Notes: a model not told the origin generated them from the sequence alone. DNA of 64,000 nucleotides from Candidatus Poribacteria bacterium (GCA_009839745.1 VXPE01000108.1:8121-72120); one strand, 5' to 3'. Shown: positions 5,530-62,628, counted from the stretch's first letter. Numbers and translations: made by a program.

Positions 5530-6144
5530 ATGCAATTCACTGACGGACTTGTGAAGTCATACGAGAAGTACGCCCATGAAAGAGCCGCTCACTCTCCTGA
5601 CGCATTTAAGGTCCGAGAGCGGTTGGAATTTCTACAATTCCTGAAGGACGAAGGACGAGAGACGCTCCTTGAAATTGGGTGTGGTCCCGGCGCGGATGCG
5701 CTGTTTTTTCAAAAGCAAGGGATCCGCGTTCTGGCGGTCGACAATACACCAACAATGGTGAAACTCACCGCAGAAAAGGGGATCTCTGCGCGAGTCTTGG
5801 ATTGCTACAATCTTGGCGAGATTAATGAGCGTTTTGATGCGGTATATACGATGAATTGTCTCCTACACATACCGAAGCGGGACTTTGATCAGGTTTTAGA
5901 TTTAATTTCAGGACGACTCAACGAAAACGGTATAATGTATATTGGCATTTGGGGAGACCAAAACTTTGAGGGTATCTGGGAAAAAGACAGATATGAGCCG
6001 AAACGGTTTTTCTCTTTCTGGAAGACAGAGGTACTTCTTGAAGTCCTACAACGATCATTTAAGTTAGAGTACTACCGGAGATTAGAGCCTCATGAAGGCA
6101 GGATATTCAATTCTATTGTTGTCCGTAAACACATGGAGGTTTAA
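5530..6144 (+). CDS. Class I SAM-dependent methyltransferase
   Basis: Motif I LLEIGCGPGADA, then VLAVDNTPTM and FDAVYTMNCLLH. Confidence 0.75.
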   Translation: MQFTDGLVKSYEKYAHERAAHSPDAFKVRERLEFLQFLKDEGRETLLEIGCGPGADALFFQKQGIRVLAVDNTPTMVKLTAEKGISARVLDCYNLGEINERFDAVYTMNCLLHIPKRDFDQVLDLISGRLNENGIMYIGIWGDQNFEGIWEKDRYEPKRFFSFWKTEVLLEVLQRSFKLEYYRRLEPHEGRIFNSIVVRKHMEV

Positions 6145-6145
6145 A

Positions 6146-6691
6146 GTGAGACGAATAGTTTCCTATATTCTGAGCGTGGCATTCATTTTGATATTCCCCT
6201 TCGTAACCGAAGCGATTGAGGACGACGCAATGGTTCTCTACTACTCGTTCGATGCAGGAAAGGGAAAAGAGATTGAAGACCTGAGCGGCAAGGGAAACCA
6301 CGGAACGCTCGAAGGCGATGCGAAATGGGAGAAAGATGGAAAGGTCAATTCGGGGGTATTTTTTAACGAACAGATTCAGAAAGGGGTGGTCGCCGCGGAA
6401 GCATCTGACAGTCTGGCAATTACCAAAAACTTGACGATGGAGGTATGGGTATACCCAGAGAGCGTCGGCGATTACCGTAATGTGCGCGGGCAGGCGGGAC
6501 CCCATACGTATTATCTGAGTATCCATCAAGGTAGACCCTCAGTGTGGATGGGATGCCCCGGTGCTGGGGGACGCACATGGAACAGCACAAAAAACGAGAT
6601 TCCGAACGATAAGTGGTCGCATGTCGCCGCAGTTTACGAGTTTGATAAGGCTGCGACGACTTGGGGGCTGCTCAAAAAAGTTGCGAGATAA
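6146..6691 (+). CDS. Secreted LamG/ConA-like protein, truncated fold, with C-terminal ATTWGLLKK tail
   Basis: GTG start 6 nt after GGAGG. Signal-like RRIVSYILSVAFILIFPFVTEA. LamG hallmark DLSGKGNHGTLEGDAKW...KWSHVAAVY is followed directly by the tail KAATTWGLLKKVAR instead of the second half of the fold. Confidence 0.6.
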   Translation: MRRIVSYILSVAFILIFPFVTEAIEDDAMVLYYSFDAGKGKEIEDLSGKGNHGTLEGDAKWEKDGKVNSGVFFNEQIQKGVVAAEASDSLAITKNLTMEVWVYPESVGDYRNVRGQAGPHTYYLSIHQGRPSVWMGCPGAGGRTWNSTKNEIPNDKWSHVAAVYEFDKAATTWGLLKKVAR

Positions 6692-6719
6692 GCGTCCAAC
6701 TTTAAACAAAGAAAGGAAC

Positions 6720-7418
6720 ATGTTGGACATTAGATTGGCGCGTCCAGATGATGCCCAAGTAATTCATCTAATATTACAGGAAACATGGGAAGAATCGCTG
6801 CTCTTTGACGTGTTCACGGATCACACCTCGTCGCCTGAGCATCAAGTCTTCGTTGCAATGGACAGTGGCGAAGTCGCAGGTTTCCTCTCGGCATTTCTGG
6901 TCCCTATTCGAGTCCCTCGATGGGAAATAGATCTCATTCTTGTTCGCCCTACAAGTCAGGGAAAGGGTATTGGGACTTCTCTCATTGCGGAAGCGTTAAC
7001 CTACGGTTCTCATCTGGGAGTGCATTGCGCTGCGGCATCCATCCGCGTGGATAACTCTGCAAGCCAACGTGCTTTTTCCAAGGCGGGCTTTGTAACAGAG
7101 GCTCAAGTGCGTAGTCTTTTTCTTTGGGATCCGTTGGCTTGTGAGTCCGCCACTAACGTGCCGGAGACTGTTCATTTCATACCCGTTGATACATTAACCT
7201 ACCGTGGATTGTGGATTGAAGGATTTATTGAACCTCGGCTCTCGGTGAAGGAACAACACAATGTGGTTCGCGCGGCTCGAAATTCTATTTTTCATGAGGA
7301 CCGCTCAAATACAGGATTGTTTATACCAGACAGTTTTAAACACACGCTCGCGCCGGATCTATTAACCTCCGCTGCCGATTTTGGTCAATATCACCGGTGG
7401 GAGTATACATACAAATAG
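6720..7418 (+). CDS. GNAT family N-acetyltransferase
   Basis: Start at MLDIRLARPDD after GAAAGGAA. Acetyl-CoA loop VRPTSQGKGIGTSLI. Confidence 0.7.
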   Translation: MLDIRLARPDDAQVIHLILQETWEESLLFDVFTDHTSSPEHQVFVAMDSGEVAGFLSAFLVPIRVPRWEIDLILVRPTSQGKGIGTSLIAEALTYGSHLGVHCAAASIRVDNSASQRAFSKAGFVTEAQVRSLFLWDPLACESATNVPETVHFIPVDTLTYRGLWIEGFIEPRLSVKEQHNVVRAARNSIFHEDRSNTGLFIPDSFKHTLAPDLLTSAADFGQYHRWEYTYK

Positions 7419-17077: not shown

Positions 17078-19228
17078 TTATTCCTTATTTTTTTCGGGAA
17101 TACGGAAGCGCGGCTCGCCATCTGTTGATTGAATCGTAAAACCGCTCCAGCCCCACCTGTTATATCTACCTTTTACATGGGTATATACCACTTGCGTTAA
17201 ATGCTCATCTGTAATTGTGATAGTGTAACGGCTATCAATCGTCTCATTTCCTACAGGAATCTGCAACCGCTGAATTTGTTTCTGACCATTCGCGATAAGA
17301 TTCACTTCTAACGGTTCAGATCTATCCTCTTCATCTACTATATTTGCACTGAAATAACATATCACTTCGTAGGTCCCATTAGGAAGCGCGACTCGGAAAA
17401 CGGCATCTTCTTTCCCCAAAATGCTATCTGCATAAGGTTGTGAAACCCCAAATTTGCTTTGTGACGCTTCACGCGCTGACACTGTTAACCAGCCGTATTT
17501 TCCATCAGTGTAAATTGTATCCACATATACAGGAATATGTCCGGGTGCTGTCTGCCCCTCTTCGGGCTGCATGTCAAAGGAGACAACGGTTCCGCCATTC
17601 CACATCTGTGGATCGGGTGGCGTGCGTTTGCGACGGTAGAGTCGATTATAGTCGTTAGCATCGATAAGATCATACTCTTCTTCCAAACCACTAACATCGC
17701 CATATTCTGTCCGCCAGATGATAGCGAAATCCGCAAGATGTTCCTTTTCCTTATACGCTTCCTTATACCGTAGCGGAAAATGGTCTGTATTTGCCTCGTA
17801 GTTATCCAGATAAGCGATCCCTTTATGCACCGCCAACAGACACTCAAGATGACCGAAGGGTTCAACGTATTTCGGTTCAAAACCGAGCGAATCTGAAAAA
17901 CCACCCCATTCCCCCGGTTCACTCGTGAGAATTGTATCCTTTTCGTCCATCCCCTCCAACGAGATAGCATTGGCAATGTCTCGGTTCAACAAGGTATACG
18001 TGTGAACGTTGTAACCGAGATGCCATAAGGATAGAGCAATGATAATCACTCCCGCAGCAACGTTTATATGCCGATGCAAATTGACGGCAAAGAATGGAAT
18101 CAAGATAAGGAATATGTAGAGATGAAACCGGTCATTTATCCAGCCACCGCTGTAGCCAGACCAAGGGGCTATGAAAAACATCACTGTGATAACGACAGAC
18201 ATGATCAGAAACCCGTCCATTTGTGACACAGCACGTGTCCAGAGCCGTTCGCCTGTCTCTTTCCATGCCTCTGATTTATGGAATTTGTAACACTGCCAGA
18301 TTCTGTTGGTGATTGTCAGGACAATAGCGATAGCAAAAAAGATCAGCAGTACACGTCCGATCAGCACATGATCGTCTCGGAAAGAGACCAAGGATTTCAT
18401 GCCAAAGAAGTAGTCGTTTAACCATTCAAAACCCTTATGGTTGCTGTTACCTCCGTGGTTGTTGGAAAGGTAGAAGTAGTAGGAGAACAGGATAAAGTAA
18501 GCAGGTATAAGACTCCCTATGAAAGTCAGTGTCGGTTTGTGCATCCCTATACTTACCTTGAGTCGGTGCATGAGTGGCTGTGATGTCTCCTTATGGCTCC
18601 ATACCCGATGTAACACATCATAAGTCGATAAGAAGAGCGGGAAGAACGTCAATGACATGATAAGCAACGCGTAAGAGTGATAGTGGGTGAGGTAGGTCAC
18701 CAACGACAATACGTATATGACAATGATGTTTGTCAGCCGGAGTTTATCCTTGACTCGCCACCAGTAACCCATTGTGAAGAAAAACAGGGACATACTGAGG
18801 ACAAAGTTGTAGAAACCCATGTGGAGTAGGTAGTTGTAGGCACAAATAAACCCAAGCAGTCCAAACACTATATTCTTTTTCTCGACACGATTGAGGAAAT
18901 AGAAAAGGGACAGCGGTAGGAGACCGATGCAGAGCGTAAGCACTATCTTTTCACAAACGAGCGGTGGAAAAACGTATAACAGGACGACAAGGAGCGCGTG
19001 GGAGGTCCAATTGGGGAAGATCGTGGCGTTCAGTTCGTAGACTTCGCGTAATCGGTAGTTCTCGTGATTGTGGTATTCCTTCACCACGTAGGAATTGTAG
19101 ATATGACTCGCTCCATCTTGCGTCGGGAAATACTTGAAACCCCAGACCGGCAGAAGATGTAGCACCAGCATCACAATAACCGTAATATATCCAATAGAGA
19201 GTTGACGTGCTTTCATTACTTCCATCAC
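17078..19228 (-). CDS. Large polytopic membrane protein (about a dozen predicted TM helices) with a C-terminal beta-sandwich-like soluble domain
   Basis: 716 aa. Hydrophobic segments run throughout the first roughly 420 aa and the last roughly 250 aa form a soluble beta-rich domain. There is a 13-nt gap to the upstream TolB-like gene. Confidence 0.55.
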   Translation of the reverse strand: MMEVMKARQLSIGYITVIVMLVLHLLPVWGFKYFPTQDGASHIYNSYVVKEYHNHENYRLREVYELNATIFPNWTSHALLVVLLYVFPPLVCEKIVLTLCIGLLPLSLFYFLNRVEKKNIVFGLLGFICAYNYLLHMGFYNFVLSMSLFFFTMGYWWRVKDKLRLTNIIVIYVLSLVTYLTHYHSYALLIMSLTFFPLFLSTYDVLHRVWSHKETSQPLMHRLKVSIGMHKPTLTFIGSLIPAYFILFSYYFYLSNNHGGNSNHKGFEWLNDYFFGMKSLVSFRDDHVLIGRVLLIFFAIAIVLTITNRIWQCYKFHKSEAWKETGERLWTRAVSQMDGFLIMSVVITVMFFIAPWSGYSGGWINDRFHLYIFLILIPFFAVNLHRHINVAAGVIIIALSLWHLGYNVHTYTLLNRDIANAISLEGMDEKDTILTSEPGEWGGFSDSLGFEPKYVEPFGHLECLLAVHKGIAYLDNYEANTDHFPLRYKEAYKEKEHLADFAIIWRTEYGDVSGLEEEYDLIDANDYNRLYRRKRTPPDPQMWNGGTVVSFDMQPEEGQTAPGHIPVYVDTIYTDGKYGWLTVSAREASQSKFGVSQPYADSILGKEDAVFRVALPNGTYEVICYFSANIVDEEDRSEPLEVNLIANGQKQIQRLQIPVGNETIDSRYTITITDEHLTQVVYTHVKGRYNRWGWSGFTIQSTDGEPRFRIPEKNKE

Positions 19229-19241
19229 CTCACCAATATAT

Positions 19242-20249
19242 TTACCTCTTTTTTATTTTCCCCCACTCAATAGGTAGCAGCTGCGGTTGCGGCAACACAT
19301 CCAATGTTATAGGATCGAACCAGTCGGCTAACGCGTTCGCCTGATACGGCACGCCAATATGTGTCAGTTGTGTTACCACTTGACTGCCTACATCAACTTT
19401 AAAGAGTTGGAGGTGACCAGCAATCTCTTGTGTATAAACGATTTCATCGCCGAGTGGCGACCAGACCGGATTTTTCGCTTTCGGACCGGCTTCGTTAACA
19501 ATTTGCTGCACGTCAGTTCCATCAGAATTCATAATGTAAATTGTTTCCTGACTGAGCCATTCCGGTGGGACGCGGAAAGGTTTGCCGGGCATCGCATCCG
19601 GTGGGACTGGAAGCGGATTCTTATTCCAAGAAAAAGAGAGTTTGTCGCCCGTAACTGTCCATGCCGGATCTGCTTGCCATGCGGAGACCCCTTGCGGAAG
19701 GACTTGCCTTTGCCGCCGTGTGTGAATATTCAGAAGGACAAGACGATGGGACCCAAACGGATTTAATGTCAAGGCAATTTCTCTACCATCAGGTGACCAC
19801 GCCGGATCAAAACCGTCGGCGACCAATTCTTCCATTTGCTTACCTATCGTAGCGATATAGATAACCTCACCCCGCTCGTAAGCGATCTGTTTTCCATCGG
19901 GTGACCACGTTGGGTTTTCTCTGCGTGCTGTCCGTTTGAATACTTTTTCGACGTTCCCGCCATCAGCATCCATGAGATATAGATCTCGCATACCATCGCG
20001 ATCGGATACGAATAAAATCTGTTCGCCAGTCGGGGACCAGACAGGAAAAAGATCGTCTGCCAGATTTTTCGTTAAGTTCACCTGTTCGCTCCCATCGGGA
20101 TTCATTAGGTAAATCTCGCGGTTAAGATCACGGGCAGACACAAATACGATTTTGGCAGTTCTCGGTGCCTGTGCCGAAATAGGGCAAACCCCTCCGTATA
20201 AGAAGACAACACTTAACACGAAGCAGAACAATAGAGATGAACCTTTCAT
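19242..20249 (-). CDS. Secreted TolB-like (PD40/WD40-like) beta-propeller protein with a C-terminal EWGKIKKR tail
   Basis: Start at MKGSSLLF after GGAGG. Signal peptide ...GGVCPISAQA. Repeated P.WSPDG..I.F..... units. Ends ...PQLLPIEWGKIKKR. Confidence 0.7.
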   Translation of the reverse strand: MKGSSLLFCFVLSVVFLYGGVCPISAQAPRTAKIVFVSARDLNREIYLMNPDGSEQVNLTKNLADDLFPVWSPTGEQILFVSDRDGMRDLYLMDADGGNVEKVFKRTARRENPTWSPDGKQIAYERGEVIYIATIGKQMEELVADGFDPAWSPDGREIALTLNPFGSHRLVLLNIHTRRQRQVLPQGVSAWQADPAWTVTGDKLSFSWNKNPLPVPPDAMPGKPFRVPPEWLSQETIYIMNSDGTDVQQIVNEAGPKAKNPVWSPLGDEIVYTQEIAGHLQLFKVDVGSQVVTQLTHIGVPYQANALADWFDPITLDVLPQPQLLPIEWGKIKKR

Positions 20250-20361
20250 CGAATTACCTCCAAGAGATCCTGAAAAAATAAATTTCCTTTTCTGTCTGAA
20301 CTCCATTCTAATAGATTTTCGCTTTTGTTTCAATACCTCAAATCTTACAGGTTTCCAAAAC

Positions 20362-34460: not shown

Positions 34461-35198
34461 TTGAGCGACGTTCCCAAAACACATCCCCGTTACCTTTCAT
34501 TGACGTTACGAGATACCATCGTTGCAGGTGTGGAACAAGGGATTACCTCTGTCCACGGGCTTATCGCGCACGGACGCGGGGAGGCTTTCGATTACCTCAT
34601 CGGGGAAACGACACAACCCTTCGCGACGGAGGCAATCCACGCCGCCGCGGCGATGCTATGTCTTGCTGAACACCCCGTCATTTCGGTCAATGGCAATGTC
34701 GCTGCGTTGGCACCTGAAGCACTCATTGAACTCGGACAAGTTCTGAACGCGCCGTTAGAGGTCAATATTTTCCACACGGAGACGGGACGCGAGCAGAGGA
34801 TCCGAGAATATCTCCTGAAACACGGCGCACCCGACGTGCTGATGCCGACAACCGAGGCGCAACTCTCCTATATCGACTCCAATCGGAAGTTCGTGCATCC
34901 AGACGGGATTTTTAAAGCAGATGTCGTCTTCGTGCCGCTTGAGGACGGCGACAGATGTGAAGCACTCCGAAAGATGGGCAGAGCCGTCGTAACCATCGAT
35001 CTGAACCCAATGTCGCGCACAGCGAAGCAAGCGAGTATCACAATCGTGGATAACGTCGTCCGAGCGTTGCCACTGTTATGTGAAGAGATTCGGGACTTCA
35101 GCGATCCCTCAGCACAGGATACCCTGAAAAGATACAGCAACGCAGCGGCGTTACAGGAAGCATTACGGCACATCAGCAGGAGCGGGAATGGAGACTAA
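34461..35198 (+). CDS. Archaeal-type phosphopantothenate synthetase (4-phosphopantoate--beta-alanine ligase, COG1701/DUF137 family)
   Basis: TTG start. HPRYLSLTLRD...GITSVHGLIAHGRGEAFDYLIGETT...HPVISVNGNVAALAPE...ADVVFVPLEDGDRCEALRKMGRAVVTIDLNPMSRTAKQASITIVDNVVRA closely matches the conserved blocks I recall for the Thermococcus-type enzyme. Confidence 0.8.
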   Translation: MSDVPKTHPRYLSLTLRDTIVAGVEQGITSVHGLIAHGRGEAFDYLIGETTQPFATEAIHAAAAMLCLAEHPVISVNGNVAALAPEALIELGQVLNAPLEVNIFHTETGREQRIREYLLKHGAPDVLMPTTEAQLSYIDSNRKFVHPDGIFKADVVFVPLEDGDRCEALRKMGRAVVTIDLNPMSRTAKQASITIVDNVVRALPLLCEEIRDFSDPSAQDTLKRYSNAAALQEALRHISRSGNGD

Positions 35199-37116
35199 CG
35201 GAAACGGAAAAACCAATCTTGTCAAACCGCATATTCTGCTGATTGGACTGGTGCTTGTCGTCTTTAATAGCTACTGGTGCCTGATGGGGACCGAGGTATG
35301 GCACTCTACACAGCTGACGATCGCCTCTCTGTTTTTCAATGCCGTTTTTACCCTCCTTGTTTTCGTTCTCGTCAACCTACTGTTCCAGCGATTCCTGCCC
35401 CGTCTGGCGATGTCGGAAGCCGATCTGCAAACCATCTACGTGATGGTCGTTATGCTGACGACTATCAGTGGGCATACCATGATGGGCTACCTCATCCCCG
35501 TCCTCGCTCACGCCTTTCAATTCGCAACGCCAGAAAACGAATGGATTCCGTTATTCGGGCATCACGTTCCGACATGGATTGCCGTTAAAAGCCCACGCAT
35601 TTTGGACGGGTTCTACGAGGGGGATTCCACACTCTATAACTCCCCCACCTTAAACGCATGGATACCGCCGGTGTTGGCGTGGTCGGGTTTCGTGATTGCG
35701 CTCTGGCTGACGTTGTTGGCGGTGACGGTTTTTCTCCGGAAGCAGTGGACGGAAAATGAACGACTGAACTATCCTATCGTCCAGCTCCCTTTAGCACTCA
35801 CGAGCAATCCGAAACGCTTTTTTACTTCGCCGTGGATGTGGCTCGGTTTCGCGCTCGCAGGGAGCGCGGAATTGCTGAACGGTTTGAACTATCTATTTCC
35901 TGATATACCTGCCCTACCGATTAAAGGCAAGACGATTGGGCAATTCAGCTCGAAGCCGTGGAGTGCGATGGGACCGATACGTATCTCCTTCTACCCGTTT
36001 AGTATCGGTTTGATGTTCTTCACACCCTTAGACCTCTCGTTTTCCTGTTGGTTCTTCTGGCTTCTCGGTCGCCTCCAACTGATTGTAACGGACGCGCTCG
36101 GGGCACGGAATATCTATCATCTCGAACAACAAACGGGGGCGTGGATAGCGTTCGGATGTATCCCGTTGTGGATCGGACGACGGCACTACGGACGCATCCT
36201 TCGGAAGGTCTTCGGCATTGCTCAACGCCGCGGTGAAGCAGCACCTGACGATTCGCGTGAACCGATGCGCTATCGGACTGCGGCGGGACTGTTCACGATC
36301 GGGATGCTGTGTCTCTTCTTTTTCTGTTTCCAGATGGGGATGACCTTCTGGGCGATTGGACTCTTTTTTCTCTTCTATTTCCCGCTGGTTATCGGGATCA
36401 CGCGTATCCGCGCTGAAATTGGACCCCCGTTGCATCAACTTATCTTTGTCGATCCCGGACGGACGATGGTGCTTGCGTTGGGCACGCGGCGTCTCGGGGC
36501 AGGCAACCTGACGGGACTCACGTTTCTCTACCCGTTTGTCCGCTGTTTCCGTGCGCATCCGACACCGAGTGAGTTGGAGGCGTTCCGTCTGGCAGAACGG
36601 AGCCAGATTGGGTATCGTCAGTTGCTCATCGGGATGATCTTGGCGATTGTGTTCGGTATCCTGATAACGTTTTGGGCGTATCTGCACGTCCTCTACGATA
36701 TGGGTGCGGGGAGCAAGGCGCGCGGCTGGATCGTCTATATGGGGTGGGAGACGTTCAATCGTTTACAGACGTGGCTTGTCAGTCCGCGGGAGACGGCTGT
36801 GCCTGAACTCGGGGTTGTCGGTGGGAGTTTCCTGTTCACGATCTTCCTGATGCTGATGAAGATCCGATTTCTGTGGTGGCCCCTGCATCCCGGGGGTTAT
36901 GTCCTCGTCAGCGGGACAGGGATGGGCGGTCTGTGGTTTCCGATTTTCCTGAGTTGGTTGGCGAAAGCGACTGTGCTGAAGATCGGAGGCGTGAAACTCT
37001 ATCGACAGGCAGTGCCGTTCTTTCTGGGATTGATTTTGGGAGATTATACGCTTGGATGCGTCTGGAGTTTAATCGGATTGGTGCTGGAGATGCCGACGTA
37101 TATCGTGTGGCATTGA
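35188..37116 (+). CDS. Polytopic membrane protein of unknown function (642 aa)
   Basis: The start overlaps the PPS stop by 11 nt. More than 12 hydrophobic helices. A paralog remnant lies upstream. Confidence 0.6.
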   Translation: METNGNGKTNLVKPHILLIGLVLVVFNSYWCLMGTEVWHSTQLTIASLFFNAVFTLLVFVLVNLLFQRFLPRLAMSEADLQTIYVMVVMLTTISGHTMMGYLIPVLAHAFQFATPENEWIPLFGHHVPTWIAVKSPRILDGFYEGDSTLYNSPTLNAWIPPVLAWSGFVIALWLTLLAVTVFLRKQWTENERLNYPIVQLPLALTSNPKRFFTSPWMWLGFALAGSAELLNGLNYLFPDIPALPIKGKTIGQFSSKPWSAMGPIRISFYPFSIGLMFFTPLDLSFSCWFFWLLGRLQLIVTDALGARNIYHLEQQTGAWIAFGCIPLWIGRRHYGRILRKVFGIAQRRGEAAPDDSREPMRYRTAAGLFTIGMLCLFFFCFQMGMTFWAIGLFFLFYFPLVIGITRIRAEIGPPLHQLIFVDPGRTMVLALGTRRLGAGNLTGLTFLYPFVRCFRAHPTPSELEAFRLAERSQIGYRQLLIGMILAIVFGILITFWAYLHVLYDMGAGSKARGWIVYMGWETFNRLQTWLVSPRETAVPELGVVGGSFLFTIFLMLMKIRFLWWPLHPGGYVLVSGTGMGGLWFPIFLSWLAKATVLKIGGVKLYRQAVPFFLGLILGDYTLGCVWSLIGLVLEMPTYIVWH

Positions 37117-45291: not shown

Positions 45292-46062
45292 ATGAAATTT
45301 AACACTTTAACATTTATCCTGTTTAGTTTAGGGCTGATAGCGATCAGTCTCGTTACGGTGAACAGTAGTAGTGCTGCAATTGATCCGAGCAGTGTTGTCG
45401 GTATTTGGCTGTTCGACGAAGCGGGCGGAAGCACAGTGATGGACGCTTCAGGAAACAATAACCATGGAACGATTGTCAACGCACCCATTTGGGTGGATGG
45501 GCGATTCGGTAGTGCTTTAGCATTTGATGGCAGTTGTGTCAACACAAACAAAAAACTTCTTAACGGCAGGAAGGAATTCACGGTTGTTGCGTGGGTAAAA
45601 CCGGGAACGATCACCGAGAATCGGATCGGACTAATAGGACAGAACGATTCACCGGAATTCGGTTTTATTAACCCGGATACCGTTGCACTATGGACGCCGT
45701 CAGCTGGTAGTAATAATCATCCGTATGAGCATCCGCCCGGTGAATGGCACCATGTCGCCGCTGTGGCTTCTGGGGAATTCACGAAGGTTTACGTGGATGG
45801 CGAGGCGACCACAGTCAACGGTAGGTGGTCCAATCACGGCAGGTCCGATTTCAACGTGAACATCGGCGGATGTGGTATTTGGGATCCTAACGGTAATTGG
45901 TTCACAGGGGCAATGGATGAGGTCGGACTCTTCCACGCACCTTTGACAGATGCCGATATTACTGATATTATGAATAATGGCTTGACTGCCTTAGGCGTTG
46001 CGGTAGAACCCGCAGGGAAAATCGCAGTAACATGGGGTATCCTCAAGCAGAAGGAATACTAA
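45292..46062 (+). CDS. Secreted LamG/ConA-like domain protein with a C-terminal AVTWGILKQ tail
   Basis: Signal peptide MKFNTLTFILFSLGLIAISLV. DASGNNNHGTIVNAPIW...WHHVAAV...VYVDGE...MDEVGLF. Ends EPAGKIAVTWGILKQKEY. Confidence 0.75.
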   Translation: MKFNTLTFILFSLGLIAISLVTVNSSSAAIDPSSVVGIWLFDEAGGSTVMDASGNNNHGTIVNAPIWVDGRFGSALAFDGSCVNTNKKLLNGRKEFTVVAWVKPGTITENRIGLIGQNDSPEFGFINPDTVALWTPSAGSNNHPYEHPPGEWHHVAAVASGEFTKVYVDGEATTVNGRWSNHGRSDFNVNIGGCGIWDPNGNWFTGAMDEVGLFHAPLTDADITDIMNNGLTALGVAVEPAGKIAVTWGILKQKEY

Positions 46063-54519: not shown

Positions 54520-56067
54520 TTATTCTACCGCCAATTTACCAGAAATCTGTTTTAACCCCTGCTGATAGTTCCGGTTTTCTGGGTCAAGTTCTAGTGCTTT
54601 TCGGATAGATTTCTCTGCTTGTGGATAGTCGCCGCGCCGAAAATCAATGATTGCGAGGGTGTTGTAATAACTCGCGACGTTCGGATCCAAGCGGATGGCT
54701 TCTTGAGCATAACGCCGCGCCGCTTCTAAATCGGTTTTCGCTTGACGCGCATAACAGATACCCAAGTTATGGTGTATCTCAGCAGTGTCAGGGGCTAATG
54801 CCGCGCTCGCCTTATATGTATCAATCGCTTCCGCATAACGCTTCTGTTTCAACAAGATTGTTCCAATCTTTAGATGTGCCTCTAAAAGTTGGGGTGCCAG
54901 CGCGGCTGCACGTCGATAATGTTCCAGGGCGGATTCCATTTCATTCTGACTGAAATATGCCAGACCGAGTCCCGCGTGTGCCTTGGCGAAATTCGGTTGG
55001 AGTGCCAACGCTTTCCGCTGGGCAGTAATGGCTCCCGAGTGTTTTCCAAGCATCGTATAAGCAATACCCAAACCGTTATGAGCTGGCACAAGTTCGGGGT
55101 TCATTCCGAGTGCTTTTTGATATTCCCAGACCGCTTTCTCATAAAATCCGTTTTTGAGGTAGAGCCGCGCGATATTGGCGAGAATCTGGGCGCGTTCCGC
55201 TGTCCCTTGTGTCCGCTGCAACGCGCCTCGTAGCTGATGTAGAGGGGTCAGGGTCGCTTTGCGTTCTTCAAACAGTGCCATCTGTTCACGCGCTGCGGAC
55301 GGATTTCCAGCGCGAAGGGATGCCTGCGCGAGATTATAGAGTGCCTCAACTAACATCTCGTCGTGTGCATACGCTGTTTGGTATGATGCGATTGCGTCAG
55401 TCCACCGCTTTTCTTGGGCGTAGAGCAGTCCTAACTGATAGTGCGCTGCTGCGAATTCCGGTGCGATGGCAATTGCGCGTTGTTGATGCTGCATCGCGGC
55501 GGAACGTTCACCGCGTTTGCTGTAGACATTCCCGAGTTGATGATGAATCATTTCATCGTTCGGATCCAAAGCAATTGCCACTTTGTAAGCATCGAGGGCT
55601 TCGGTGTAACGGTGCATGTTCACATAAGCACTCGCCAGAGCCGCATGGGTATATGCCCAATCGGGAACGGAGGCAATCGCACGCCGATATGCAGCGACGG
55701 CATCTTCAAATTTCTCAAGTCCGGTGTATCCCAATCCCAATCCATAGTAAGCAGTGGCAATATCCGCATTGTGCCCAGTCCTCGCGCTGTTGGAAACTGG
55801 ATTCACTTCCATCAACCCAATTATTCGACGATACTCGTCAACTGCTTCCGTGTAAGCCTCAATTTGGAGGTAAACCTTCGCGAGTTGCAATCGAGTCTCA
55901 ATCCGTGTGCCATCAACCGCCAATTCTGCTTTGTAAGCGCGAATCTGTGCTGTGATGTCCGCAGCAGTCGTTTCTTGACAGAACCCGACTGAGATGTGAT
56001 GGAAAGCAAGGTGGCACGCGACGAGTGCCATCAATACAACTGGGGAATAGGAAAGTTTCCGGGCCAC
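54520..56067 (-). CDS. TPR repeat protein with an N-terminal signal/anchor
   Basis: 515 aa of tandem 34-residue A..YY.LG..Y...G....A...Y..AL.L.P repeats. Confidence 0.85.
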   Translation of the reverse strand: MARKLSYSPVVLMALVACHLAFHHISVGFCQETTAADITAQIRAYKAELAVDGTRIETRLQLAKVYLQIEAYTEAVDEYRRIIGLMEVNPVSNSARTGHNADIATAYYGLGLGYTGLEKFEDAVAAYRRAIASVPDWAYTHAALASAYVNMHRYTEALDAYKVAIALDPNDEMIHHQLGNVYSKRGERSAAMQHQQRAIAIAPEFAAAHYQLGLLYAQEKRWTDAIASYQTAYAHDEMLVEALYNLAQASLRAGNPSAAREQMALFEERKATLTPLHQLRGALQRTQGTAERAQILANIARLYLKNGFYEKAVWEYQKALGMNPELVPAHNGLGIAYTMLGKHSGAITAQRKALALQPNFAKAHAGLGLAYFSQNEMESALEHYRRAAALAPQLLEAHLKIGTILLKQKRYAEAIDTYKASAALAPDTAEIHHNLGICYARQAKTDLEAARRYAQEAIRLDPNVASYYNTLAIIDFRRGDYPQAEKSIRKALELDPENRNYQQGLKQISGKLAVE

Positions 56068-56102: not shown

Positions 56103-56786
56103 CTAAAAACGTTGTTTGAGGCGTCCCCATGTCGTGGCAAGTTTATCATTCGCATCAACGGCAAGGGTATCTATAACGTTATCACCGGTAATCATGACAT
56201 CGTCAAAACTCGCTGCGGTCTCCCATGCCCATACACCGATTTTGCCGGTCTTGTAGGCATTATCCTTCTGTTCACCCTGCAATTCGCCGTTAATATAAAA
56301 TTTAAATATCTCACCTTCAATCACAGCTTTAACATCAAGCCATTCTTCGAGCTCTATCTTCACTTTTTTAGTGGCCGGAATATTACTGTTAATCGCTTGA
56401 CGCGTATCCCACGCCCCTTTGGTATGCTTCCAGAGTTCAGACTTGTTGTTCGGAATGTTGAGATAATAGACATAGTACTCATGCTCGCTTTGTGCCCGGA
56501 AAACGAGACCTGCCCAATTGTGCTCATCTATTCGGATTTTTGCTTCAACGGTGTAATCATCCCAGTCCTCTTCACCGACGAGAGAATGTTCAGCTTTCCC
56601 GCCTCTTTCGACTTGGTAGATACCACCTTTGATTTCCCAATTTCCGTTCGCGACTTTCCAGTCATCGTGTTTTTCCTCAAAGTCCCACAATTGCGTCCCT
56701 GCAAAAGTTGGTAGCGAAAACGCGACCCCCAAAAGCATAATAAGACTCAGGGGAACTAACTTCGAGAATCCGATAGCCGTTCTCAT
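56103..56786 (-). CDS. Secreted ConA-like lectin/glucanase fold protein (DUF1080-like) with a C-terminal LATTWGRLKQ tail
   Basis: Start at MRTAIGF after AGGAGGAG. Signal ...AFSLPTFAG. WKVANGNWEIKGGIY...DYTVEAKIRI...VFRAQ.... Ends DANDKLATTWGRLKQRF. Confidence 0.7.
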   Translation of the reverse strand: MRTAIGFSKLVPLSLIMLLGVAFSLPTFAGTQLWDFEEKHDDWKVANGNWEIKGGIYQVERGGKAEHSLVGEEDWDDYTVEAKIRIDEHNWAGLVFRAQSEHEYYVYYLNIPNNKSELWKHTKGAWDTRQAINSNIPATKKVKIELEEWLDVKAVIEGEIFKFYINGELQGEQKDNAYKTGKIGVWAWETAASFDDVMITGDNVIDTLAVDANDKLATTWGRLKQRF

Positions 56787-61923: not shown

Positions 61924-62628
61924 TTATCGGGCGTTTTTGATGCTGCCCCATGTGGTTGCGAGCTTGGCTCTGGGGTCTACGGGAAAACTATCATCGCCGA
62001 AGAACTCAATCTCGCCAATTTGAAAGTACGCCCCAGCCGGGTTCGATGCGGTGTCAAAAGTAACATGCCGAAAAAAACTATACCCGGTTTTTTGAACGTC
62101 GTAATCTTCCCCTGCCTCAAAAAGGACGACTTGCAGTCGCTGATCCCAAAAACTCTTCCCGTCGTGAGCATAGATGGTCGTAAACTTCTTGCCGTCGTTC
62201 GACCCCTGAACCTCCCACACTGTAGGGTCCCTCGGAGGAACATCGTTCGCTGAAGATACGGTGAAGTGTGTCAATGCGTACTGCTCCTCAAACTCAGCTG
62301 TCACGTGTAGACCTTCTTTCGGAATACCGCCCCCACGTCCGCAGCACCATTTGTCATTGCTGGGACCAAGGCGGTTATCGAAGACGTTAAACGCAAATTC
62401 TCCGCCCGCGAATCCGGGTTCATCATTGGCTGAGAAAGTGGCGTTGTAACCTTTATCTGCTTCAGGCTCGCCATCGTCTTCTGGGTCGGTGAGGTCTCCT
62501 CCGAGCAGTGAGTCCGTCCCTGTTCCCAAGACTTCCTCCGCCTGTGCCATGTCGCTCGTGCTGATAACAAGACAGGCTATCATCAACACAAATCCTGCTA
62601 ATACCAACATAATTTTCATGTCGTTCAA
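61924..62628 (-). CDS. Secreted discoidin/F5-8 type C-like domain protein with a C-terminal LATTWGSIKN tail
   Basis: Signal/anchor IMLVLAGFVLMIACLVI. FDNRLGPSNDKWC...FTVSSANDVPPRDPTVWEVQGSNDG. Ends DPRAKLATTWGSIKNAR. Confidence 0.65.
   Translation of the reverse strand: MNDMKIMLVLAGFVLMIACLVISTSDMAQAEEVLGTGTDSLLGGDLTDPEDDGEPEADKGYNATFSANDEPGFAGGEFAFNVFDNRLGPSNDKWCCGRGGGIPKEGLHVTAEFEEQYALTHFTVSSANDVPPRDPTVWEVQGSNDGKKFTTIYAHDGKSFWDQRLQVVLFEAGEDYDVQKTGYSFFRHVTFDTASNPAGAYFQIGEIEFFGDDSFPVDPRAKLATTWGSIKNAR

Follow-up and report, generated by a model that had tools for sequence, protein, structure and literature searches.

The closest described counterparts of the protein tail analyzed here are the tripartite sorting systems PEP-CTERM/exosortase, LPXTG/sortase, GlyGly-CTERM/rhombosortase, MYXO-CTERM/myxosortase, and PGF-CTERM/archaeosortase, whose signals, as outlined in published accounts, carry a hydrophobic transmembrane helix after the signature motif (PMC11980579, PMC1569441). 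In T9SS, a Sec signal peptide is combined with a C-terminal domain (CTD) that governs a step after the inner membrane, and many of the cargo proteins are lectin-like or propeller proteins. The CTD is a folded beta-sandwich domain of ~70-100 residues. Encapsulin cargo-loading peptides and PTS1 are very short linear C-terminal peptides on a flexible linker, with neither a membrane segment nor a fold; their substrates are cytoplasmic proteins that lack a signal peptide. In the dockerin-cohesin system, different binding modules share one docking element, the dockerin, a folded Ca-binding domain of ~70 residues. To our knowledge, every envelope sorting tag described so far either crosses the membrane or adopts a domain fold.

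Here we describe a tail of ~20 residues, of the form A-V-E-P-x-G-K-L-T-T-T-W-G-x-L-K-x-x-x, on exported proteins of Candidatus Poribacteria. Like the tripartite signals, it is a short, lineage-restricted C-terminal homology region on otherwise unrelated signal-peptide proteins, with dozens of carriers per genome and a many-to-one logic, and it consists of a signature motif (V-E-P ... K-L-T-T-T-W-G, whose V-E-P recalls the P-E-P of PEP-CTERM) followed by an end that tends to be basic, with R as the commonest last residue, but varies in length and sequence. Unlike them, it has no membrane-spanning helix between the motif and the end. Between K(-5) and K(+4), counted from the Trp, there are only ~10 semi-polar residues, and the best 15-residue Kyte-Doolittle window within the last 25 residues has a mean of 0.16 and a maximum of 1.26. 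The tail shares with the T9SS CTD its position behind a Sec signal peptide and its lectin-like and propeller carriers, but their Pfam domains end ~20-30 residues before the stop codon, and the ~20 residues left after the last domain strand offer no room for a CTD. Possible TIGR04183 matches on poribacterial eukaryote-like proteins were noted by Kamke et al. 2014, who reported the T9SS genes to be absent from poribacterial single-cell genomes and left the secretion route open (PMC3909097). Neither TIGR04183 nor PF18962 matched any of the five proteins from which our analysis started, and no such match appeared in the Pfam census of carriers given below. The tail further differs from encapsulin and PTS1 tags in that 91% of its carriers are Sec substrates, and from dockerins in being a ~20-residue peptide; no cohesin-like scaffold was found.

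NCBIfam models, including TIGR02595 and its relatives, gave no C-terminal match to the whole proteins (E<=1) or to the tails alone (E<=10), sorting signals among them, and no Pfam model matched the tail in either kind of search. A PDB profile search with the tails returned internal chance matches only (E>0.2), and no description of the tail was found in the literature searched. Only 23/172 tails end in F, Y, or W, and the carriers have soluble lectin or propeller folds, unlike proteins that end in an outer-membrane protein (OMP) beta-signal. The preliminary description of this locus had held that the tail has no hydrophobic helix, is far shorter than a T9SS CTD, and does not end in the aromatic residue typical of an OMP beta-signal; it had not recognized the tail as a described signal and had named coverage by an existing sorting-signal model as a contrary outcome, which was not observed in Pfam or NCBIfam. 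By its logic the tail would belong with the C-terminal sorting tags, judged by analogy, while it fails the defining structural features of each family tested. As it neither spans the membrane nor folds, the analogy to known envelope sorting tags is loose.

Five tailed proteins are encoded in the window, that is, the whole 64-kb stretch of DNA analyzed. They and their tails are as follows:

6092/6146-6691, + strand: short exported protein with half a LamG domain (Pfam Laminin_G_3, partial), ending ...FDKAATTWGLLKKVAR
6638..6688, + strand: variant tail of this protein, EFDKAATTWGLLKKVAR, without the V-E-P and K-L positions
19242-20249/20333, - strand: exported PD40/TolB-like beta-propeller protein (Pfam), ending ...PQLLPIEWGKIKKR
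19245..19304, - strand: diverged tail of the PD40/TolB-like protein, LDVLPQPQLLPIEWGKIKKR
45292-46062, + strand: exported Laminin_G_3 protein (match to residues 83-223 of 256), ending ...EPAGKIAVTWGILKQKEY
45997..46059, + strand: tail of this Laminin_G_3 protein, VAVEPAGKIAVTWGILKQKEY
56103-56786, - strand: focal exported DUF1080/ConA-like protein of 227 aa (Pfam 3keto-disac_hyd and Laminin_G_3), ending ...DANDKLATTWGRLKQRF
56106..56165, - strand: tail of the focal protein, its last 20 residues, LAVDANDKLATTWGRLKQRF
61924-62628, - strand: exported F5/8 type C (discoidin-like) protein (Pfam), ending ...DPRAKLATTWGSIKNAR
61927..61986, - strand: tail of the F5/8 type C protein, FPVDPRAKLATTWGSIKNAR

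All five reading frames lie where the preliminary description had placed them, with ends that match its quoted tails exactly, and each begins with the signal peptide claimed for it, of the Sec type by a hydrophobicity heuristic. Its other statements about the set need correction. The folds were called unrelated, which is overstated, as three of the five are jelly-rolls of the ConA-like/LamG superfamily; the propeller and the discoidin-like protein do have clearly different folds. Among the common features it listed, the W-G end is present in all five, but the 6092-6691 protein lacks the V-E-P and K-L positions, and the TolB-like tail has diverged. The conserved element is C-terminal, as stated, but longer than was described, with V-[ED]-[PA] as its start, ~10 residues upstream of the Trp.

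In the focal protein the jelly-roll domain lies between a signal peptide and the tail, and public assemblies call an identical 227-aa product with the same start. For the PD40/TolB-like protein (19242..20333), the start is probably near 20249. The tail of the F5/8 type C protein is retained in its orthologues at five other loci (L050, L068, L084, L090, and L094). In the 6092-6691 protein, the LamG domain is only half present (profile positions 8-90 of 151 in Pfam) and passes directly into the variant tail, whose core reads K-A-A-T-T-W-G-L-L-K; this reading frame overlaps the next one (6561-7418) by ~130 nt, and the protein looks like a deletion derivative in which the tail was retained.

A six-frame scan of the window for W-G-x-[ILVM]-[KR] gave eight matches, five of them in long reading frames and all of these 7-9 residues before the stop; the other three fell into short spurious frames. 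With ordinary amino-acid frequencies, 0.015 tailed proteins are expected by chance among the 52 window proteins, and the probability of five or more is ~5e-12. The tail occurs on five of the ~10 exported soluble proteins of the window versus none of the 42 others (Fisher p = 1e-4), and the exported proteins without it include TPR, Bmp, BNR, and DUF1326 proteins. Since only half of the exported proteins carry the tail, it marks a subset, and therefore a route.

To follow the tail beyond the window, K-L-[AT]-T-T-W-G-x-[LIMF]-K was back-translated to a degenerate DNA pattern and scanned against one genome per species (185,579 species). At least 120 stretches matched, and among the matches listed nearly all are Poribacteria metagenome-assembled (MAG) or single-cell genomes; one Synechococcus match among them is a non-coding chance match. 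Homologues of the focal protein with a source name are annotated as Candidatus Poribacteria, and a carrier labeled "uncultured bacterium" groups with a named Poribacteria protein. Thus, among the matches listed, the tag is confined almost entirely to Poribacteria. Two tailed reading frames lie on contigs with other labels, namely L040 (JAPPIL010000222.1), binned as Pseudomonadota (sponge bin RHO2_bin_21), and L106 (JAFDHL010000343.1), labeled Deltaproteobacteria, where the frame is interrupted immediately upstream of the tail; both are probably misbinned poribacterial contigs, horizontal transfer being the alternative. Among 2.9 million viral contigs the pattern matched once, at a true C-terminus (...RPKLATTWGHLKSGK*; L121 300-329, IMG/VR UViG_3300012947_000048), and this protein may belong to a poribacterial prophage or phage, or else the contig may be misclassified.

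Two protein-level searches with the tails were also made. A profile search of a representative library returned 2118 proteins at E<=0.001, which is not a clean count, the profile having also caught a LamG C-terminal motif, so that giant multi-LamG proteins without the tail contaminate the set; among the 150 best of the 2118, the tail is present in 87 of the 147 newly returned proteins. A word-indexed protein search with an X-padded tail profile gave 14 short fragments, all of them tail-bearing.

A census of the tail was taken in the 120 loci of the genome scan plus the window (0.98 Mb), which contain 172 reading frames with the motif. In a Trp-anchored alignment the consensus is L-[LTF]-[AP]-V-[ED]-[PA]-x-[GD]-K-L-[AT]-T-T-W-G-x-[LI]-K with 2-5 polar or basic residues behind it. 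In 175 of 180 motif matches the distance from the Trp to the stop is 6-17 residues, most often 8, and the DNA pattern by which the loci were fetched had no stop-codon requirement. V(-10) is present in 158/168 tails and P or A(-8) in 149/168; both positions are outside the search pattern and thus constitute independent evidence. All synonymous codons are used at each conserved residue, for example six for Leu, four for Thr, and four for Gly, which argues for constraint on the peptide rather than on DNA or RNA. Of the best 120 focal-protein homologues, which range from 51 to 93% identity, 118 carry the ending K-L-[AT]-T-T-W-[GA]-x-[LI]-K, and the two without the tail look truncated or frameshifted; the tail is therefore conserved at least as well as the domain core. 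It is under strong selection at the protein level. The T-T, the G, and two Lys are near-invariant at fixed spacing, and such conservation of polar residues points to specific recognition rather than to generic physicochemistry.

The PD40 family displays a graded divergence of the tail, from LLTTTWGDVK to LLPIEWGKIK and then to MWGWLKQL in a lineage of 65% GC, and its members at L006, L080, L002, L096, and L097 have tails ranging from canonical to diverged. This gradation suggests that the tag was acquired long ago and that its core is W-G-x-[LI]-K. At L097 (CAYYPK010000012.1, 64.6% GC), a tandem PD40/Kelch array bears both canonical (KLTTTWGAMK) and variant (MWGWLKQL.., STWGWLK) tails, and the contig may represent a divergent lineage with a drifted tag.

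In the census loci, a signal peptide is present on 143 of the 157 carriers with complete 5' ends versus 183 of 514 control reading frames (91% versus 36%; odds ratio 18, p = 1e-37), and lipobox-like sites occur in only four of the 143. The preliminary description had proposed a test of enrichment among signal-peptide proteins, which is positive in these loci, and had named as contrary outcomes a similar frequency of the motif at internal positions or in cytoplasmic proteins and an origin of all tails as the last strand of one common domain. Neither was observed: the motif is C-terminal in nearly all matches and its carriers are predominantly exported, and the tail follows LamG, DUF1080, F5/8-C, CBM9, PD40, Kelch, ankyrin, and He_PIG+LTD architectures. 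The tag is C-terminal, modular, and tied to signal peptides.

In a Pfam census of 146 carriers, Laminin_G_3 accounts for 81, CBM9 for nine, F5/8-C for eight, DUF1080 for seven, and pentaxin-like domains for six, with Kelch, PD40, and LTD (three each) and ankyrin as minor classes. Individual carriers include He_PIG+LTD giants of up to 1681 aa, signal-peptide ankyrin-repeat proteins, and Kelch propellers. A typical secreted-enzyme class is absent among the 25 most frequent carrier families, where the sole enzyme-named entry is 3keto-disac_hyd/DUF1080. Most carriers are single-domain binding modules, and they often form tandem paralogue arrays. The tag thus marks mainly binding and repeat modules, which in sponge symbionts have been discussed as the "eukaryote-like" repertoire (PMC3909097). 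An LRR+LTD protein at L122 (9913-12615) has a diverged terminal tail (KLTERWATLKSEE), and poribacterial LRR proteins at L122 1973-3877 and L124 1-278 give weak to clear matches to Dockerin_1 in precomputed Pfam annotation.

The place of the tail relative to the fold was modeled with AlphaFold2 for the focal protein with 70 orthologues (mean pLDDT 87). The model contains the signal-peptide helix and the jelly-roll. The final strand of the jelly-roll closes at residue 201 of 227, leaving ~25 residues for a low-confidence linker and then a weakly helical tail (pLDDT 58-67), with L, W, L, and F on one face of the helix. In this model, therefore, the tail is an exposed appendage rather than the final strand of the fold.

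A signal peptide, an exposed near-invariant peptide, restriction to an exported subset, many folds, and one phylum together fit an address tag used after Sec export. Most likely, the tail is an undescribed address or anchor tag of this kind. The N-terminal signal peptide would carry the protein over the inner membrane via Sec; the flexible tail, exposed on a short linker past the folded domain, would then be recognized by a dedicated poribacterial envelope factor, perhaps a receptor or scaffold, perhaps a translocon, or else an enzyme of the processing or transpeptidase type; and recognition would lead to retention, display, or release of a defined exported subset, consisting mostly of small lectin-like modules and eukaryote-like repeat proteins. 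We infer recognition by a specific partner, and each step past Sec export, from these features of the tail and its carriers. That a dedicated factor of the poribacterial envelope recognizes the tag and thereby brings about surface retention, display, or release seems to us an even chance. The stronger proposal that the tag defines a new post-Sec poribacterial pathway, with its own receptor, translocon, or transpeptidase, displaying or releasing lectin-like and eukaryote-like proteins, is more tentative: it is less likely than not, but has a substantial chance of being right. Of the preliminary description's idea of a modular sorting, docking, or processing tag, the modular and undescribed C-terminal tag is supported, while its function is inferred, no receptor, enzyme, cleavage, or location having been found. 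The functional logic that we hold most likely is that of the dockerin-cohesin system.

In the neighborhoods of the tail genes, no receptor, enzyme, or translocon was identified, and no cognate exosortase, sortase, or rhombosortase. Clustering of 908 reading frames in 121 loci gave as recurrent neighbors only large poribacterial paralogue families, namely WD40, GFO/IDH/MocA, PhyH, FG-GAP/ASPIC, TPR, and ECF-sigma/BNR. A large membrane protein with DUF6785 and DUF6784 adjoins a GH32 hydrolase in the window (35188-37116, + strand), and its family recurs in six tail-selected loci (e.g., L066 5767-7848). Two neighbors of tail genes in the window were considered as candidate partners:

17078-19228, - strand: polytopic membrane protein of 716 aa with ~8 TM segments and no Pfam or NCBIfam match
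54520-56067, - strand: exported TPR protein of 515 aa, immediately downstream of the focal tail gene

In the 716-aa protein, TM1 is followed by a conserved F-P-T-Q-D-G-x-S-H-x-Y-N loop, and the C-terminal domain is rich in beta structure; its AlphaFold2 model was unusable (pLDDT 39.9). The family is very conserved in Poribacteria, with 543 homologues at E<=0.001, the best 120 of these 543 at 71-96% identity, and forms at least three paralogous subfamilies of 31-50% identity. Its gene adjoins tail genes in the window, L082, and L086. However, no canonical tail gene is adjacent in four loci picked via the membrane gene, and the adjacency is thus an ascertainment effect of choosing loci by the tail; the family was rejected as a partner. 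TPR domains can bind C-terminal peptides. The pairing of the TPR gene with the focal gene recurs in L094 and in public assemblies (L126-L128), and two further exported TPR subfamilies flank LamG tail genes elsewhere. Exported TPR proteins lie beside tail genes in three synteny groups. Exported TPR neighbors are not enriched, with 12 TPR proteins among the 908 reading frames, a frequency about that of the background, and we therefore treat them as a lead and not as evidence.

The tail might instead act with no protein partner, a cationic Trp-containing peptide itself sticking to LPS or lipid head-groups, or to peptidoglycan, possibly through one invariant Lys. Its composition is suitable: the segment from K(-5) to the end has a mean net charge of +2.8, and an invariant interfacial Trp is flanked by Leu or Ile and accompanied by two invariant Lys. 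The one-sided arrangement of L, W, L, and F in the weak predicted helix, and the outcome of the neighborhood analyses, in which no partner gene was found, point the same way. However, the mean hydrophobic moment is low (0.25) in both helix and strand geometry. Anchors of the PBP5/MinD type form a strongly amphipathic helix; here AlphaFold2 does draw a helix, but at low confidence (pLDDT 58-67). Generic membrane-binding tails conserve character, not sequence, whereas here T-T, G, and V-E-P hardly vary, and keep a fixed spacing, in hundreds of paralogues. We regard direct binding to the envelope as unlikely.

A role in oligomerization, in which a swapped strand or helix joins the lectins into homo- or hetero-oligomers or filaments in a donor-strand-like manner and has no part in sorting, would suit single-domain binding modules encoded in tandem paralogue arrays, as these would gain avidity as multimers, and the Thr-rich K-L-T-T-T-W segment is strand-like in composition. 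Against it, folds as unrelated as jelly-rolls, propellers, ankyrin repeats, and Ig+LTD cannot share a complementary groove, and AlphaFold2 leaves the tail undocked on its own domain, making this explanation quite unlikely. A degron or processing signal, through which tail-specific proteases of the periplasm, or quality control there, would adjust protein levels, is less probable still: the tail is strictly C-terminal, exposed, and flexible, as this would ask, but tail-specific proteases favor apolar C-terminal ends, whereas the final residues here vary among polar and basic ones (R, Q, K, N), and strong selection for a degron in over a hundred paralogues is hard to see.

The T-W-G-x-L-K segment seems to resemble encapsulin targeting peptides of the T-V-G-S-L-K type, and such a peptide, short, C-terminal, flexibly linked, and built around a G-x-L-K core with a few residues after it, could in principle load cargo into a protein compartment. 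Encapsulin cargo is cytoplasmic, however, whereas nine-tenths of the carriers have Sec signal peptides; no shell gene is present among the annotated window genes or the recurrent neighbors of tail loci, and no paper linking Poribacteria and encapsulins was found in the literature, so that we give this reading hardly any credence. The OMP beta-signal, amphipathic-anchor, and encapsulin-type readings are all rejected or weakened by the signal peptides and the tail composition. Finally, that the conserved end is no protein signal at all but either a conserved DNA or RNA element located where genes end, at the 3' side, or simply the final strand of a single homologous domain, is a negligible prospect, since, for all the LamG-superfamily carriers (81/146), free synonymous codon use rules out a DNA-level element, and the tail follows at least eight unrelated architectures and lies outside the fold in the AlphaFold2 model.

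An address tag acting after Sec export would be of interest both for bacterial envelope biology and for symbiosis. Poribacteria are dominant uncultivated symbionts of sponges, and their secreted "eukaryote-like" proteins are thought to mediate the interaction with the host. With the tag, candidate surface and secreted proteins can be picked from any poribacterial genome by a one-line sequence rule; it also supplies a defined peptide for use in pull-downs, antibodies, and structure-prediction screens, and a target of phylogenetic profiling for the machinery. If the proposed role is correct, this would be the first bacterial envelope-sorting signal to consist of nothing but a linear peptide of ~20 residues, without a membrane segment or a folded C-terminal domain, and the design space of bacterial sorting signals would widen accordingly.
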